Source of the DNA: Nitrososphaeraceae archaeon
GTDB lineage: Archaea > Thermoproteota > Nitrososphaeria > Nitrososphaerales > Nitrososphaeraceae
Direction: 5' to 3'
Assembly (NCBI GenBank): GCA_035297365.1
Contig: DATGZA010000025.1
Span: 1 to 10,037, forward strand
DNA length: 10,037 nt
Below, in pieces: positions 1-9,514 of the stretch; position 1 is the stretch's first letter, and each line of letters starts with the position of its first letter. The notes below the pieces were generated by a model that made no database searches, had not been told where the DNA came from, and saw only the letters and a list, made by a program, of their open reading frames with translations. The position numbers were made by a program, and so were the translations under genes.

Positions 1-23
1 ATGTTCCATATTTTTCAGCAATT

Positions 24-1058
24 ATGATTCTAGTAATAACAATAAGTCTTCATTTCTCTTTAAATAACATTAATCCATTAGCATATAGCATGGATACCAA
101 TAACTATCCTACTGTAGAAAATAATACTAAATTATTTTTAGAAAAGCTACAACAAAGTGGTGGTCCTCCACTCTATACTTTGACGCCCACAGAGGCTCGT
201 AATGTACTGTCTGGAGTTCAGGCAGGTCAGATAGAAAAACTTCCAGCAGAAATAGAAAACAAAACTATTCCGGGGGGTCCTAATGGTGAAATTTCTATTC
301 AGATAGTCAAACCCCAAGGTAGTCGCAATGAAACTCTCCCTGTTGTAATATACACCCATGGTGGTGGATGGGTACTAGGTGGTTTTGATACTCATGAGAG
401 ATTGTTAAGGGAACTTGCTAATGGCGCACATGCAGCAATTGTATTTGTCAACTATACGCTCTCTCCTGAAGCAAAATATCCACAATCGGTAGAAGAAGCA
501 TATGCTGCTACAAAATGGATTTCAGAGAATGGTCAAAGCCTTAATTTAGATTCTTCACGTTTAGTAGTAGCAGGTGATAGTGTAGGGGGCAATATGGCTA
601 CTGTAGTTGCATTACTTGCAAAAGAGCGTGGCGGACCTGCCATTATATTCCAAATGCTATTTTATCCAGTTACAGATGCGAACTTTAACACTTCTTCATA
701 TAATACATATCAAGAAGGATACTTTCTTACGCGTGAGAATATGAAATGGTTTTGGGATAATTATGCTTCAAACGATACTAATAGAAAAGAACCAACTGTT
801 TCTCCACTACAAGCATCAATTGAGCAGCTTAGTGGATTACCACCTACACTAATCATAGTAGGAGAAAATGATGTTCTACGTGATGAAGGTGAAGCATATG
901 CTCATAAACTCATGCAGGCTGGCGTTCCAACCACAGCAATTCGCTACCTTGGTACTATTCATGACTTTATGATGCTTAATCCAATTACTGATACTCCTGC
1001 AGCAAGAGGTGCAATAGATCAGGCTTCTCATATACTTAAAGAAGTATTATCAAAGTAG
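24..1058 (+). CDS. Alpha/beta-hydrolase, hormone-sensitive-lipase (HSL, family IV) esterase/lipase, probably with an N-terminal signal peptide; true start may lie upstream of the window
   Basis: HGGGW oxyanion motif, nucleophile motif GDSVGG, acid residue in ENDVLRDEG, catalytic His in TIHDF. The frame is open to the window edge (3-23 reads VPYFSAI). Confidence 0.93.
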   Translation: MILVITISLHFSLNNINPLAYSMDTNNYPTVENNTKLFLEKLQQSGGPPLYTLTPTEARNVLSGVQAGQIEKLPAEIENKTIPGGPNGEISIQIVKPQGSRNETLPVVIYTHGGGWVLGGFDTHERLLRELANGAHAAIVFVNYTLSPEAKYPQSVEEAYAATKWISENGQSLNLDSSRLVVAGDSVGGNMATVVALLAKERGGPAIIFQMLFYPVTDANFNTSSYNTYQEGYFLTRENMKWFWDNYASNDTNRKEPTVSPLQASIEQLSGLPPTLIIVGENDVLRDEGEAYAHKLMQAGVPTTAIRYLGTIHDFMMLNPITDTPAARGAIDQASHILKEVLSK

Positions 1059-1147
1059 AGAAACCCCATATCCATTTTAATTATTAAAAATACATGTTCT
1101 AGGAATATATATTATATTTTAAAAGTTTAATTGTTTATAATGATGTT

Positions 1148-1437
1148 TTAAATCTTGATAATTTGAATTCCACCTACGGCGAGTAAAGATGATACTACTA
1201 TTGGTATTTTTTGTATATCTTTTTACTCTTTTAAATTGGTGTAAATTTTTTTAATTTATTAGATTTATCATCTATTGGAATTAATATACTGTTACTGTCA
1301 AAAGAAACATACTTCAATATAAGATTCTTTTTCTCAGGATCTAATTTGCTAGTCTGGATATCTGTGAACTGTTCAAAGGTTTTAATACTTTCTTTTATTT
1401 TATCTTGGGCAACTGTTATTATATAAATAAAATTATA
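1148..1437 (-). pseudogene. Possible degraded ORF with weak receiver-domain-like tail
   Basis: Open minus-strand frame 1437-1231 with no ATG (..QDKIKESIKTFEQFTDIQTSKLDPEKKNLILKYVSFDSNSILIPIDDKSNKLKK..). A second frame near the T7 run at 1246-1252 reads IYTNLKE*KDIQKIPIVVSSLLAVGG. Confidence 0.2.
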
Positions 1438-1488
1438 TCAATAAGAAATTTTATAGATATAATTTTCTTGCTTAATATTTCAGAATAT

Positions 1489-1518
1489 TATGTTTAAATT
1501 GATATGTTTAAATTGATA
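1489..1518. repeat. 14-bp tandem duplication TATGTTTAAATTGA x2 (+TA)
   Basis: Exact copies at 1489-1502 and 1503-1516. Confidence 0.9.
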
Positions 1519-1746
1519 CTAAATATCATTTATATTCATTATAGCAGATATTCAGCATTAACCGAATTCTAGTTCTATTTAATTTATAATGCATATATCT
1601 ATTTGTACCTATCTCCTTCAATTTTGTAACCATCAAATTTATTAATTTTATATTTCTGAAACAATATTCAATATTGTAGTAATGAATTTTCATCAGTGAC
1701 GGATATTTTCTATAATTAGTTAGAAAATTATGTAGTTAATAATTGA

Positions 1747-3207
1747 TTATAACATATATACAACATCTGATGAGTTAGTGGGATAGGAATACAATATAGG
1801 ATTTTTAAGATCCTTTGCAGTTAGCCCTTGTCGAATAGCTAAAGAGAAAATGTTAATGACTTCTTCAGCATGTGGACCAAGTATGTGAGCCCCTAAAATT
1901 CGATCAGTATCTTTCTCAATTAATACTTTAAATCCTGAACAAGTCTCCCCTACTCTTTTTGATGATGCCCAGCTATCTGTTTTTTCGTGGTTGGTTCTAA
2001 ATTGTAATCCTCTTTGTGTAGCTTCTTTTTCCTGCATGCCTACCGAGGTTAAAGGTGGAATAGTAAAGACAACACTAGGCAAGCCAGCATAGTTTGTTTT
2101 AAGAGTATTTCCATTGATTAAATTATTTGCTACTATAGCACCTTCATAACTTGCTACAGGAGTTAATGGCAGGCCTCCACTGTCTGCAACATCGCCTGCT
2201 GCATATACAGATGGATTTGAGACACTTTGAAGATATTCATTTACTTTTATACCTCTACGCTCAGTATGTTCTATATTACCTGTAATCAGATTTAATCCTT
2301 CAATATTTGGTATCCTGCCAGCTCCATGTACTACCAAGTCAGCTTCCTCTGTTTGTTCGTCTGAACTCGTTTTTTCCTCTGCAGTAGTAGTAATTATAAA
2401 AGTGTCTGAAACATTACTACTAGAATGTTCAACTCTTAATTTACCATCAGACATTCTATCGATTTTCTTGACTGTTCTCCCAATTTGAACATCTATTCCA
2501 ATATCTCTAGAACGTTTGACCAATTGATTCACAAGGTCTGGATCAAAGTGCTCTAAAGGTTGTTTGCCTCGATGTAAAATAGTAATCTTCTTAACTCCTG
2601 CACGAGCAGCAATATGTGCAAATTCAAACGAGATATATCCACCTCCCACAAATACTATTCTATCAGGTAAATGATCTTCACCAAACTCTAGGAAACCATC
2701 ACTCGTAATAATGTTCTTGGATCCAGGAATGTTCAGATCCATAGGTTTTGCTCCGGTTGCGATTAGAATATTTTTACTATTAAGAACAGTAGTTTTCTTA
2801 TTATTATCATTATTATTATTTTCTTCAACTTGAATGTTATTTCTGCCAATGAACTTGGCATGACCATGAAATACATTGATTCCAGCTTTGATGTAACCAT
2901 TTTCTCTATGTTCAGGAAAAGGTTCAGTAAAAGTACTTTTGAAACGTATCAAATCAGACCATTTTATATGTATTTCATGTGAACCAACTATACCTTTATT
3001 CTCATGCCTCAGATTTGAGTCAACAATCTTGGCTGCCTCCACTAACACTTTCTTAGGATCGCATCCCCGCAAGGCACATGTGCCTCCAAATGGTAATGAA
3101 TCTATTATCGCTACACTCCATCCTTTCGAACGACATTCATGAGCAGCTGCTGATGCTGCTGATCCTGTTCCTATAACTATTAAATCAAATACACTTTCAC
3201 TATTCAT
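1747..3207 (-). CDS. Pyridine nucleotide-disulfide oxidoreductase, class I (glutathione reductase/dihydrolipoamide dehydrogenase superfamily); substrate unknown
   Basis: FAD-binding GTGSAA, redox-active GGTCALRGCDPKK, IATGAKP, NAD(P)H-binding GGGYIS, AAGD, and dimerisation domain ILGAHILG. Start placed at ATG 3207 (MNSESVF) rather than 3225 because a TTTTATAT box lies ~24-31 nt upstream of 3207. Confidence 0.93.
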   Translation of the reverse strand: MNSESVFDLIVIGTGSAASAAAHECRSKGWSVAIIDSLPFGGTCALRGCDPKKVLVEAAKIVDSNLRHENKGIVGSHEIHIKWSDLIRFKSTFTEPFPEHRENGYIKAGINVFHGHAKFIGRNNIQVEENNNNDNNKKTTVLNSKNILIATGAKPMDLNIPGSKNIITSDGFLEFGEDHLPDRIVFVGGGYISFEFAHIAARAGVKKITILHRGKQPLEHFDPDLVNQLVKRSRDIGIDVQIGRTVKKIDRMSDGKLRVEHSSSNVSDTFIITTTAEEKTSSDEQTEEADLVVHGAGRIPNIEGLNLITGNIEHTERRGIKVNEYLQSVSNPSVYAAGDVADSGGLPLTPVASYEGAIVANNLINGNTLKTNYAGLPSVVFTIPPLTSVGMQEKEATQRGLQFRTNHEKTDSWASSKRVGETCSGFKVLIEKDTDRILGAHILGPHAEEVINIFSLAIRQGLTAKDLKNPILYSYPTNSSDVVYML

Positions 3208-3242
3208 TCTATAATATAAGTTCATAGAAAATATAAAAATAC
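3208..3242. promoter_or_regulatory. Compact divergent archaeal promoter region with TATA-like boxes on both strands
   Basis: Minus-strand TTTTATAT at 3238-3231 upstream of ATG 3207; plus-strand TATAATATAA at 3210-3219 upstream of TTG 3243. Spacing fits leaderless transcripts, but the background is AT-rich. Confidence 0.4.
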
Positions 3243-3473
3243 TTGTTATCTCTACTTAAATCTAAAGAAGTAAAAGACTTAGAGTTGGGAAATACAACAA
3301 TAGAGGTTCTAAAATACATTGCAGTAAACCCTTCGACTTCTTTCTACGATTGTTACAAATACATGAAAAATAAATATATTTTAAAGAACAAAACAATAAC
3401 GTATAAAACTGTCCATTTCAAAGTACATAAGTTGCTTCAATTATGCTCTAGTAATCCACTAATATTTTTTTAA
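3243..3473 (+). CDS. Small winged-helix-like protein, probably C-terminally truncated
   Basis: Helix pattern IEVLKYIAVNPSTSFYDCYKYM...ITYKTVHFKVHKLLQL resembles wHTH helices 1-3. The expected wing is absent. Confidence 0.45.
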   Translation: MLSLLKSKEVKDLELGNTTIEVLKYIAVNPSTSFYDCYKYMKNKYILKNKTITYKTVHFKVHKLLQLCSSNPLIFF

Positions 3474-3592
3474 TTACTTTTTTCTAGATTAGTTACTAAT
3501 TTTAATTGATAAATTGTCTTTCAATATTAGTTAAGTTTTAAATCAAATCAAGTTATTTATTATTTGTTAAATTTGTTCTTTGTACGCGTTGC

Positions 3593-4030
3593 TTATTCAA
3601 ATTCTCGATGATGTTCAAATTTAGTATGATTTTTGAGCAAATCTATTAATGGTCCTTTAATTTCTTTAACATTCTGTTTAAATAAAATCATTTCCTTACC
3701 TTCTGCTATGCAATAGATATTTACCTTCCATTTATCATCATCAGGATTTGGAAAATCAAACCGGTAATTAGCTCCTCTGCTCTCTTGTCGCATAAGCGCA
3801 CTTTTTATTATGATCTCACAAATAACCAATGCCGACTTTACTTCCCAAGTTAAAACAATATTTTTATCATCAATTTTAAATTCTTTTATTATTTTATCGT
3901 TAGAATAAAACTCTTTTTTTAATTCTAAAATTCTTTTTAACCTCTTTTGAGCTTTGTCTGTTCCCTTATTATTCCAGCATTCTGTTTCATTAATTCTTGT
4001 ATTTCATTGAGAAACATAATTGGTTCCTTA
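3593..4030 (-). pseudogene. C-terminal remnant of a succinate dehydrogenase/fumarate reductase/L-aspartate oxidase-type flavoprotein
   Basis: Reads EPIMFLNEIQELMKQNAGIIREQTKL, a frameshift near 3940-3950, then LKRILELKKEF...WEVKSALVICEIIIKSALMRQESRGANYRFDFPNPDDDKW. This matches the helical domain and ESRGAHYRxDFP motif (His replaced by Asn). The FAD-binding domain is absent. Confidence 0.85.
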
Positions 4031-4249
4031 ACTATAAAGATAATTCTATTTGTTGAAAAAATATTTTAATATTTAAGGATTAAAAATTTTTTTATGGTAA
4101 TCAACTCATTACATTATAAAAATTTGATAGAGATAATATCATGCATTAAAGAGATAGTTGTGAAACTGTTACTACGAAAAAAGCGTCGTAGAAAAGGTCT
4201 AACCAGGTCGCATTACTTTCTTCTTTTTTATTTTTTATCTTGATTTTTT

Positions 4250-4330: not shown

Positions 4331-5101
4331 CTAGAACTTATTATTTTTGCCAATTAACTCATAAACATATTTAACATGTTCATAAGTTTTCAATCTCTTT
4401 TCTTCTGCTATTGTTATTTTTTTAGTTCTAAATATATTATTGTTGGTTATCTTTCTCATTTCATTATTAAACTCTTTTGAGATGATAATTTGATCATTAT
4501 CAGCAAAGCCCTCAAGTCTGCTACAGAAATTAACATCATCTCCGATAGCAGTAATCTGGCTTCTTAGAGGAGAATACCAATATCCAAACAATACTTCACC
4601 AAAATGAATAGCACATTTCAAATTTATATTGGTAGTAGGCTTGTAATCATAATGAGAATATAAAATTTTCATATGTTTTTCCTTGATTTTTATAAAATTC
4701 ACCTTAAACTCTAATGCAGCGTTCATTGCATTTGAATAAACTATATCAAATTTTTTATCTTGGTAACCAAAGTAAGCAAAAATTCCATCGCCTATAAATT
4801 TGTCCAATATTCCATTATATTTTTTAATCACTCTTGTTGCTTCACTATAATAATCTCTTAACAAGTATTCTACTTCTTCAAAGATAGGACCTTGTATTTT
4901 CAGTCTTTTTTTCAGTAATGCTTTTAATTCTTTAATTAAGGCAGAAAATTTACTTATATCCCAAAATACAATAATCAATTTATTGATGTTAATTCCATCT
5001 AATTTTAATTCTTTAATATGTTTATATATGAATAGATCAAAGTACATGCCTAATTGTTCCTTAGAATAAGGTTCATTATCTGTAATATTCTGATTAGCCA
5101 T
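4331..5101 (-). CDS. Class III adenylate cyclase, stand-alone catalytic domain (Lys/Thr specificity pair)
   Basis: Metal Asp48 (VFWDISKFS) and Asp105 (LDKFIGDG), adenine-specifying Lys101, Thr184 (QITAIG), transition-state Asn191/Arg195 (VNFCSRLE). Confidence 0.92.
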   Translation of the reverse strand: MANQNITDNEPYSKEQLGMYFDLFIYKHIKELKLDGININKLIIVFWDISKFSALIKELKALLKKRLKIQGPIFEEVEYLLRDYYSEATRVIKKYNGILDKFIGDGIFAYFGYQDKKFDIVYSNAMNAALEFKVNFIKIKEKHMKILYSHYDYKPTTNINLKCAIHFGEVLFGYWYSPLRSQITAIGDDVNFCSRLEGFADNDQIIISKEFNNEMRKITNNNIFRTKKITIAEEKRLKTYEHVKYVYELIGKNNKF

Positions 5102-5108
5102 TATATTT

Positions 5109-5117
5109 GCACTCCTT
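5109..5117 (-). promoter_or_regulatory. Shine-Dalgarno-like site coupling the cupredoxin stop to the cyclase start
   Basis: Minus strand reads TAAGGAGTGCAAATATA-ATG; GGAGTG follows the upstream TAA in a 14-nt gap. Confidence 0.6.
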
Positions 5118-5523
5118 ATTTATTTTGATCTAGAAAATTTAACAGATTTGGAGTTCTGATATTATATATCTTATTAAGGCATCTTAATCTTTGAATATTG
5201 CTCATATTTTTATAGTCATCAGCAGTAAAAATAGTAATACTATTAACTTCCATTCTATGTATTTTACATACATAATCAATTCGTTCATAATTATAATTAA
5301 ACGTTATTTCTCCTACTTCTCCTGAGTTTAAATAAAGTCTTTCATTTAATAGTTCAATATTTGTCGGGTTTGGATCAATTTTAATAAAGTATAGATTGTG
5401 AGGTTTACTATCTGTATTAATCCATCTAATGGTATCTCCTTTTTGAATTTTGACGGTTTGTGGAATATAATTTCTAATAGACTCATTAGGTTGAAATTGT
5501 GGAATAATTACCTGCTTTTTCAT
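5116..5523 (-). CDS. Cupredoxin (plastocyanin/amicyanin-like) domain protein with no signal peptide and a ~35-aa C-terminal extension
   Basis: YIPQTVKIQKGDTIRWINTDSKPHNL (His42) and YVCKIHRME (Cys86, His89, Met91/Glu92) match the type-1 copper fold. Confidence 0.85.
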   Translation of the reverse strand: MKKQVIIPQFQPNESIRNYIPQTVKIQKGDTIRWINTDSKPHNLYFIKIDPNPTNIELLNERLYLNSGEVGEITFNYNYERIDYVCKIHRMEVNSITIFTADDYKNMSNIQRLRCLNKIYNIRTPNLLNFLDQNK

Positions 5524-7562: not shown

Positions 7563-8675
7563 TCATAAAAATAATTCTTTTACTTTATTTACAAATGTTT
7601 CTTTATCAATAGGCTTTGTTATTATGAGATCTTTGTCCAATCCTGGAATCAAAGTCAATATTTCATCTGCAATATACAAACCAGTAATAAAAAGAACCTT
7701 TATAGTAAGATCTATACTCTTGATTTGCTGATAAAGTTGAAATCCATTTAATTTGCTCATTCTAATATCTGCAATTACCAATAGATTCTGATAAAAAGGA
7801 TTTGATCGCAAGTACTCTACTGCCATAGTAGGGTCGATAAAGGATGTAACATAAAAGTCATGTGCTGTTAAAAATAATTCTATGGTTGTTAATACTTCAG
7901 GATCGTCATCTACTAAAATGACTTTTTTTCTGAGATCATAATTCCTATAAATCATTTGTTGACTTTCCTGTTCTTTATCTAATATGATAGAATAGCTAGC
8001 ATTAGTTTCTCCATTAGAATCTGAAATATCCTGATCTTTTAAATATTCACTCTTAGATGGTCTTCTTTCTATTGTATATGTAAAATATTTAATATCTGAA
8101 GAGATATTATATTGTTCTGACTTGGTAAAATTATATAATTTTTCAAAAAATGGAGAATAAGCGTTCAATATTCTATAAAGATTATCTCCTATCCTCAATT
8201 CATTCTGTAAAGATAATTGATTAATTTTTGCACATAAATTCACAGTTGATCCAAACAAATCGAGTTGATTATATTCTCCAGATAGTGCTATTTCTACTAC
8301 TCCATAATCCAAGCTGATTCTGTAGTTAAATGGTGAAAAGTTTTCTCTTGATAACTTGTCGTTGATATTATGACGATTCTCAAGAATCTCAAAAGAACAT
8401 TCTAATGCTTCATAAAAAGCTGAGATATTTGTACTGTCAGATGTCTTGGGAAAGTAAAATAAAAGCGAATCTCCCATATTTTTTATTATTTTAGCCTTAT
8501 TCTTTTTAGCTATCTTGGATACCGAATTGATAAACGTTTCATAATATCTTCTAGTATCTTTCGAATTGCAAAACGCTAAAGTGTTTTTAGTTGAATCGAC
8601 CAAATCAATAAAACAAATACAACAATTTATACTAATATCAGAGAATTTGATTCCTTTTGAACCGACAAATCTCAT
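7563..8675 (-). CDS. Class III nucleotide cyclase fused to a C-terminal response-regulator receiver domain
   Basis: Cyclase: Asp24 (CFIDLVDST), Lys65/Asp69 (IIKNMGDS), Asp139 (QLDLFG), Asn146 and Lys150 in place of the usual Arg (VNLCAKIN). Receiver: VILVDDD, IADIRM, FITG, TKPI. Confidence 0.92.
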   Translation of the reverse strand: MRFVGSKGIKFSDISINCCICFIDLVDSTKNTLAFCNSKDTRRYYETFINSVSKIAKKNKAKIIKNMGDSLLFYFPKTSDSTNISAFYEALECSFEILENRHNINDKLSRENFSPFNYRISLDYGVVEIALSGEYNQLDLFGSTVNLCAKINQLSLQNELRIGDNLYRILNAYSPFFEKLYNFTKSEQYNISSDIKYFTYTIERRPSKSEYLKDQDISDSNGETNASYSIILDKEQESQQMIYRNYDLRKKVILVDDDPEVLTTIELFLTAHDFYVTSFIDPTMAVEYLRSNPFYQNLLVIADIRMSKLNGFQLYQQIKSIDLTIKVLFITGLYIADEILTLIPGLDKDLIITKPIDKETFVNKVKELFL

Positions 8676-9017: not shown

Positions 9018-9514
9018 TTGCCAAAGAACAGCACTCATACAATTATAGAAAGAAGAAGTAAAGTCATAATGCTTTTGGCTGAAGGAAAGACACAGATTCA
9101 AATTGCTCCTTTTTTAAAAGTATCTCCTCAACTGATTCATGATGATAAAAAAGCCATAGAAAGAGATGTACAAAAATACATAATGGAAAATGCTTCCAAA
9201 AATACCGCGTACCTTCTCTATATTTCAATGGGCAATATTTTAAGAGTAAACAGAGAGGCATGGAAAATATACGAGGATAAAAAACGACGGCGAGGGATAA
9301 GATCAACAGTCTCAAAGTATCCATTCAGGCTTCTGAGGCATTACAGCATCTGGCAATAGAGGGATTCAACTCTCAAGAGGCATATATGACAACAATGGAC
9401 CTGCAGAAAGTATAAGATGAACAGAATAATAACAAAATAAATTATCCGGTAATTCCTTTGGTGAATGAAGAATCAGATGTTATAGATTTAGAACATTCAC
9501 CTACTTCATCATAA
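9018..9514 (+). pseudogene. Frameshifted HTH-domain protein (N-terminal HTH plus helical bundle)
   Basis: HTH: IERRSKVIMLLAEGKTQIQIAPFLKVSPQLIHDDKKAI. After REAWKIYEDKK, the -1 frame at the A6 run 9279-9284 continues TTARDKINSLKVSIQASEALQHLAIEGFNSQEAYMTTMDLQKV to TAA 9413-9415. That frame is open again to TAA 9512-9514. Confidence 0.7.

Follow-up and report, generated by a model that had tools for sequence, protein, structure and literature searches.

In class III nucleotide cyclases, we take the catalytic roles to be divided among two metal-binding aspartates, an asparagine and an arginine acting at the transition state, and a lysine that selects adenine together with a threonine or aspartate. 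A lysine/threonine pair (Lys101 and Thr184 in the protein studied here) indicates ATP as the substrate. On the side of the copper proteins, the known axial variants of type-1 blue copper carriers have glutamine or leucine in place of methionine, and an anionic glutamate at the axial position should favor Cu(II) and lower the potential. Such carriers are marked by a blue band at ~600 nm and by a small hyperfine splitting in EPR. Two nitrifier cupredoxins are described in the accessible text of PMC13746201: Nmar1307, at +361 mV, which has NO oxidase activity and reacts with NO, and nitrosocyanin, which has a His2-Cys-Glu-water site at +85 mV. A cyclase transducer element (CTE) is described in the accessible part of PMC5995499. 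For archaea, the available text of a 2023 review (PMC10249747) states that no protein making, degrading or binding 3',5'-cAMP has been characterized and that the general role of cAMP is unknown; the word "copper" has no occurrences in that text.

The window analyzed here, an entire contig of 10,037 nt (C25), comes from a Nitrososphaeraceae archaeon whose genome (2.5 Mb, 97% complete) encodes archaeal AmoA, and the related loci carry record titles of Nitrososphaeraceae or Nitrososphaerales. The original prediction described a cupredoxin gene and a cyclase gene that are co-oriented and 14 nt apart, and both open reading frames indeed lie on the minus strand around a gap at 5102-5115, with the word GGAGTG at 5110-5115 immediately after the cupredoxin TAA (Table 1). 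The Pfam model Copper-bind matches cupredoxin residues 18-91 (E 3e-8, above the cut-off), and Guanylate_cyc matches cyclase residues 40-240 (E 4e-10; 39.9 bits vs a cut-off of 21.9). Neither protein shows the signal peptide or transmembrane helix that the prediction had said would be missing, with 19-residue Kyte-Doolittle values that peak at 0.42 in the cupredoxin and at 1.10 in the cyclase, a call made by hydropathy alone. Hydrophobic segments (19-residue values of 1.6-3.0) are present in 14 of the 17 other cupredoxin-like ORFs of the same genome. One ORF that has no such segment, at C14:261415-261738, encodes a 107-aa Met-type cupredoxin that is possibly also cytoplasmic.

Table 1. Features of the cupredoxin-cyclase locus, in window positions.
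Feature	Position	Strand	Remarks
Cupredoxin-fold gene	5116..5523	-	135 aa; encodes the predicted sensor part
Class III adenylyl cyclase gene	4331..5101	-	256 aa; Guanylate_cyc match, six catalytic residues
Intergenic gap, likely fission point	5102..5115	-	14 nt; Shine-Dalgarno-like GGAGTG
His42, first predicted metal ligand	5398..5400	-	From homologue alignments
Predicted ligand loop Cys86-x2-His89-x2-Glu92	5248..5268	-	Glu at the axial-Met position
Cupredoxin C-terminal tail	5128..5199	-	Two predicted helices; homologous to the first half of the fused linker
Cyclase N-terminal arm	5003..5059	-	Contains Y-[FV]-D-P; similar to the cyclase transducer element
Pro23Leu codon of the window cyclase	5033-5035	-	Leu where Pro is conserved

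The cyclase was proposed to be catalytically intact, and it has all six expected residues (D48, K101, D105, T184, N191 and R195), none of which varies among the 85 homologues aligned. The protein can be aligned with CyaB and CyaC, and its sequence makes it a class III adenylyl cyclase, predicted to produce cAMP from ATP as a dimer. Its N-terminal arm has a conserved Y-[FV]-D-P motif, followed by a helix in the fused model, and resembles a transducer element, an assignment made by likeness to the CTE. Within this arm, position 23 is proline in 83 of the 85 aligned sequences and leucine in the window, a substitution also found in a neighboring lineage, in a copy from genome G010 that is broken by an insertion sequence (IS); the window's own copy may therefore be deregulated. 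At about residues 60-75, the window's clade has a basic 11-residue insertion relative to the fused members described below, which is a possible partner-binding surface. The genome encodes 13 class III cyclases in all. A second one, of 370 aa, is encoded in the window at 7563-8675 (minus strand) and carries a REC domain at its C-terminus. It falls outside the subfamily of the pair's cyclase, has lysine at the usual transition-state arginine position, and shares 45-62% identity with at least five paralogues of the same genome.

The model of the cupredoxin (pLDDT 84.5) matches Nmar1307 best (5fc9; Z 12.9, rmsd 2.5 over 92 aligned residues), followed by the C-terminal cupredoxin of a Nitrosopumilus multicopper protein (Z 12.4); in the ESM Atlas, it matches its own cluster and unnamed look-alikes at 0.87-0.91. 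H42, C86 and H89 reproduce the His...Cys-x-His equatorial ligand pattern. The protein is nevertheless not canonical blue copper, as the fourth ligand shows: aligning the C-x2-H-x2-E loop with the C-x2-H-x2-M loop of amicyanin places Glu92 at the axial-Met position. Only 15 of 120 homologues retain Met91, next to this glutamate. Cys, His and Glu are invariant in all 105 sequences of a mixed alignment of split and fused proteins. The first histidine is slightly less constant: among 120 close homologues, 112 have His42 and eight, forming a subclade near the window, have arginine. In the clade of pairs at about 47% identity, the glutamate is retained behind a loop insertion of 4-5 residues. Sorting the cupredoxin domains by locus type, we found the glutamate in 47/47 fused domains and, at the same spacing, in 23/34 adjacent ones, the other 11 being apparently the insertion clade plus one deletion variant; among the 11 unlinked domains, two have it, and these are broken or cut fusions. 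None of the 17 other cupredoxin-like ORFs in the window's genome has an axial-position glutamate, and 12 of them have methionine. Two distant fusions (P0252 and P0262) have histidine or glutamine in place of the glutamate; P0252 holds both a Met-type and a His-type cupredoxin. A new point here is that the predicted metal site is not standard blue-copper: it keeps His-Cys-His and replaces the axial methionine with glutamate.

In a search of 61 genomes, 19 places, counting the window's own, matched the cupredoxin with at least 45% identity. Conservation of the neighborhood among homologues had been put forward as a check on the original prediction, and a cyclase lies directly downstream of the cupredoxin in 16 of 16 testable loci outside the window; two more matches end at a contig edge. 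A second contig set, from partly the same genomes, gave 11 of 11. All of these loci come from related genomes that are not independent, and the numbers are counts rather than statistics. The adjacent split pairs fall in two clades, at about 78% and 47% identity. Searching from the cyclase side added two matches at 44% identity or more, both fragments with no cupredoxin (L072 in G017 and L058 in G005). Of 21 dN/dS comparisons with the window, 20 gave values of 0.22-0.42 (cupredoxin) and 0.14-0.33 (cyclase); the exception, at 0.53, is the cyclase of the IS-broken G010 copy. Both split genes are thus under purifying selection. The link between cupredoxin and cyclase is not a product of chance.

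The surroundings of the pair differ from locus to locus. Flanking genes are variable, and no copper gene was noticed among the recurring neighbors, which were judged from their sequences alone. Several genomes, complete ones among them, also contain cyclases of the subfamily that lack a neighboring cupredoxin (L118-L122, L124-L127), and six copies are frameshifted or truncated (L071, L072, L079, L080, L084, L156). In the G010 locus (L031, 6839-7810), an insert of about 1 kb with transposase-like ORFs, presumably IS5-like from its motifs, breaks the cyclase gene. In the window, 3593-4041 (minus strand) is the 3' remnant of a gene for a fumarate-reductase-type flavoprotein, 612 aa long in G010; compared with that locus, about 2 kb just downstream of the window cyclase is missing, comprising the 5' part of the flavoprotein gene and a 135-aa ORF. 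Positions 1-3990, with an esterase (24-1058, plus strand) and a pyridine nucleotide-disulphide oxidoreductase (1747-3225, minus strand), are syntenic with L088 and L089 at 89% DNA identity, and a split pair of the 47% clade fills the position of the window's pair there; this synteny places a thiol-redox enzyme near the module in four loci. Two short ORFs of the window (9018-9359 and 3243-3473, both on the plus strand) have weak Pfam matches and are HTH- and wHTH-like. In genus g5 (L096-L117, L173-L180), about 22-29 loci show the fused gene in a fixed neighborhood that also holds two conserved ORFs and an MFS-like transporter, which suggests that the fusion is a core gene there.

The weaker cupredoxin matches turned out to open frames of 350-375 aa whose remainder is the same cyclase, so that both domains are found as one chain of about 360 aa in many relatives, as a search for fusions had been expected to reveal if the pairing was real. 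A profile built from 14 fused proteins retrieved 299 proteins at E<=1e-30, many of them labeled "class 3 adenylate cyclase/plastocyanin" by JGI's automatic annotation. In the best 120 of these 299, each of the H, C, H and E ligands and each of the D, K, D, T, N and R catalytic residues is present in 120/120. Counting unbroken full-length rows only and leaving out two unpublished genomes, the fusion occurs in at least 49 of 199 genomes of the family, a lower bound, and spans seven genera. An order-level sample gave a match of any length in 46 of 89 Nitrososphaeraceae genomes and in one of 211 genomes from other families of the order, that one being cyclase-only; the best reading is that a metal-site-gated adenylyl cyclase is confined to Nitrososphaeraceae. 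Among longer proteins with this cupredoxin domain (211 in all), 113 of the best 120 carry PF00211 and the other seven are truncated fusions, so that no other output domain was found among those 120. Some fused forms are longer still, with an extra N-terminal domain before cupredoxin and cyclase (L062, L086, L087, L147, P0249, P0250, P0252, P0258, P0261, P0262); two have weak MG2/Ig-like matches, and some have a further C-terminal domain.

The two window proteins are colinear with the fused form: the alignment with fused L081 spans its residues 9-131 for the cupredoxin and 148-362 for the cyclase. After the beta-sandwich, the models show two tail helices at matching positions (109-120 and 127-132 in the window protein, 107-117 and 124-129 in L081), and in the L081 model more helices follow, the last one just before the cyclase core. 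The tail of about 35 residues and the arm of about 40 residues noted in the original prediction are therefore present, although not as separate features; given this colinearity and the shared pair of helices, they are the two halves of the linker of the fused relatives.

We examined the direction of this change with a cyclase-domain tree (a quick maximum-likelihood analysis of 76 rows with nearer outgroups, leaving out five distant outgroup rows and near-identical rows that matched 22 name prefixes), which replaced an earlier tree with distant outgroups whose base was unresolved. The split cyclases form one clade (SH-aLRT 99) whose sister group comprises longer cyclases, extended at the C-terminus, and a separate upstream cupredoxin is also present at two loci of this longer type (L158, L159). 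The split and longer-type group nests inside the fused forms (SH-aLRT 100), with REC- and GAF-cyclases outside; an AU test disfavored the fused forms as a single clade (p 0.023), for a group picked after seeing the tree. This nesting makes fission the likely direction, and the split pair thus likely arose from a fused gene. Among 50%-identity representatives, the nearest cyclases lacking a cupredoxin have REC or GAF in the same position, one of them named from the bacterium Fibrella, and this shared position suggests that the cupredoxin is an input domain.

Gap lengths across 22 split pairs range from 10 to 23 nt, with all three frames represented. Programmed frameshifting or read-through was ruled out by this spread over the three frames, and sequencing error as the origin of the split by its recurrence in the 22 pairs. 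The exact word GGAGTG occurs at two of the 22 junctions, most of the others having words of GGTG- or GGAG-type. A scan with a sigma-70 promoter and terminator model, which is ill-suited to archaea, stayed at chance level (17 hits vs 15.0 +/- 3.7) and returned zero terminators.

The original prediction of a trans-acting sensor subunit is partly supported: from the adjacency of the cupredoxin to the cyclase, its fusion with it and the REC and GAF domains at the same position in related cyclases, we infer that the cupredoxin is the sensor part of the cyclase, a role that is well supported. The prediction did not anticipate that the pair probably derives from a common fused protein, nor that the axial position of the metal site holds glutamate. 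We regard sensor-type coupling between the two proteins as highly probable, and favor as fairly likely a model in which a fission-derived pair has a copper site at His42, Cys86, His89 and Glu92, and re-association of the chains switches cAMP by copper state. In this model, these four residues would hold one copper ion in the cupredoxin; its oxidation, ligation or presence would shift the tail helices; these helices would pack on the transducer arm of the cyclase and, so packed, would set the activity of the cyclase dimer, turning cAMP synthesis on or off. In the window, the coupling would run between two chains, the cupredoxin re-associating with the cyclase dimer. Since an axial glutamate would favor Cu(II) and a low potential, the site is a better fit for a switch than for an electron shuttle.

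Overall, we consider copper a reasonably probable metal and input. For the signal itself, our tentative preference is the copper's state of oxidation or ligation, under oxidant or NO stress; plain copper occupancy, which we rank below it, is rather unlikely. With similarly limited confidence, we put forward the broader proposal that soil ammonia-oxidizing archaea possess a dedicated family of copper-gated cyclases that reads NO or oxidant stress arising from ammonia oxidation and adjusts cAMP levels to it, with the sensor acting in trans in one lineage. On the output side, no cNMP-binding domain (PF00027) was found in the window's 97%-complete genome, and one occurs in only four of 25 genomes of the genus. 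Genes for USP proteins were considered as a cAMP receiver and rejected: they lie near 12 of 132 loci, mostly in one kin clade, and with 11 USP matches genome-wide this is no evidence.

A coupled sensor-cyclase might instead use its His2-Cys-Glu site to report a different metal, for example Zn(II), Fe(II) or Ni(II), or to read pH by way of a protonatable glutamate. Replacing methionine with glutamate gives a harder ligand set, typical of zinc or iron; the protein is predicted to be cytoplasmic, where free copper is scarce; the iron-uptake proteins EfeO and FtrB, which have a cupredoxin fold, match at Z of about 10; and the recurring neighbors include no copper gene that we noticed. However, the closest matches by sequence and by fold are copper proteins of ammonia oxidizers, Nmar1307 and 9cck, and according to the accessible text of PMC13746201 the His2-Cys-Glu set binds copper in nitrosocyanin, so we consider another metal, or pH, improbable. 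To much the same degree, we doubt that the cupredoxin is a constitutive structural partner, serving solely for the folding or sustained activity of the cyclase dimer, or the pair an uncoupled and slowly decaying remnant of the fused gene with an unregulated cyclase in the window. Orphan cyclases of the subfamily, the many broken copies, the His42Arg subclade and the Pro23Leu change all point that way, but split clades that share only about 47% identity all keep Cys, His and Glu, despite the loop insertion, split pairs appear again in deeper sister lineages (L158, L159, L168), and purifying selection acts on both genes.

Two further readings deserve very little weight. The pair could be a Pycsar-like anti-viral system, with a cyclic nucleotide from the cyclase as its alarm signal, given that PycC models match it at E 3e-14 to 2e-4, its flanks are variable and its presence is patchy. 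Yet the unrelated cyclase-REC of the window matches PycC equally well, which reduces these matches to a likeness among class III cyclases in general; Lys101 and Thr184 point to ATP; we saw no effector gene that recurs beside the pair; and one genus keeps the fusion in a fixed neighborhood in most of its genomes. In a genome that encodes 13 class III cyclases as well as some 18 cupredoxin-like ORFs, an ordinary electron-carrier cupredoxin might also come to lie beside a cyclase by chance. Conserved adjacency, frequent fusion and a shared linker speak strongly against such a coincidence, as does the finding that the best 120 of the longer proteins with this domain are all cyclase fusions, whole or truncated.

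Taken together, our data describe a real, conserved, probably sensor-regulated class III cyclase whose cupredoxin input domain is absent from the literature searched. We found no description of a cupredoxin-cyclase in that literature, a search whose reach excluded most subscription journals; the fusion is visible in automatic database labels, and is unstudied rather than unseen. In the main text of PMC13577086, class III cyclases and blue-copper proteins are separate family orthogroups; the accessible part of PMC4836417 places genes for a cyclase and for secreted copper-domain proteins in one cluster of a different system; the words "cyclase" and "cupredoxin" are absent from the available text of PMC5847659; and the copper sensors in the available text of PMC10141476 include none with a cupredoxin input. 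The family consists of small soluble enzymes with active sites intact by sequence and a built-in candidate input, and natural fused and split versions allow a direct comparison of sensor-cyclase coupling in trans. A natural cupredoxin with an axial-position glutamate is also of interest for copper-protein chemistry. If our model is right, a cupredoxin would serve as a signaling input, archaeal cAMP would gain an assignable source with a defined stimulus, the split sensor would be a separate, exchangeable subunit, and the copper- and NO-dependent metabolism of abundant soil nitrifiers would be tied to a second messenger.

Compared with described systems, the pair falls outside the plastocyanin/amicyanin, nitrosocyanin and Pycsar families. 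The adjacent cNMP-binding effector gene of Pycsar is absent at the pair. Amicyanin and plastocyanin share the cupredoxin fold, and amicyanin an identical C-x2-H-x2-X spacing, but the protein studied here has glutamate for the axial methionine, carries no export signal, and scores below the cut-offs of two NCBIfam models (36 vs 88 bits and 24 vs 110 bits). CupA of Streptococcus pneumoniae (4f2e) has a cupredoxin fold too (Z 9.1, 16% identity); we take it to handle Cu(I) rather than transfer electrons, as a copper chaperone with no enzyme output. Nitrosocyanin, a red copper protein (1iby; Z 10.8, rmsd 2.2 over 90 aligned residues, 12% identity), has the same kinds of ligand, His2-Cys-Glu, in a different order: Glu60...Cys95-His98-His103, vs His42...Cys86-His89-Glu92 here. 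Nmar1307, the purple cupredoxin of Nitrosopumilus maritimus (5fc9), is the best match by sequence (29% identity) as well as by fold, and also combines His-Cys-His with a non-Met axial residue, the aligned residue being arginine there and glutamate here; it has no helical tail, and we saw nothing that links it to a cyclase. Nitrosocyanin and Nmar1307 together provide a precedent for the ligand set, though with a different ligand order, and for NO chemistry at nitrifier cupredoxins.

The closest likeness in architecture is to sensor-linker class III cyclases (bPAC and OaPAC with BLUF, CyaC, CyaB, and REC- and GAF-cyclases), which have the same core with its Lys/Thr pair and likewise connect an N-terminal input domain through helices and a transducer-like element. 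The fused model superposes on CyaC (1wc3) with a TM score of 0.88 over the target and an rmsd of 2.2, and its top matches include no solved structure with both domains. What sets the present system apart is a cupredoxin as its putative input domain, for which the window has a gene of its own.
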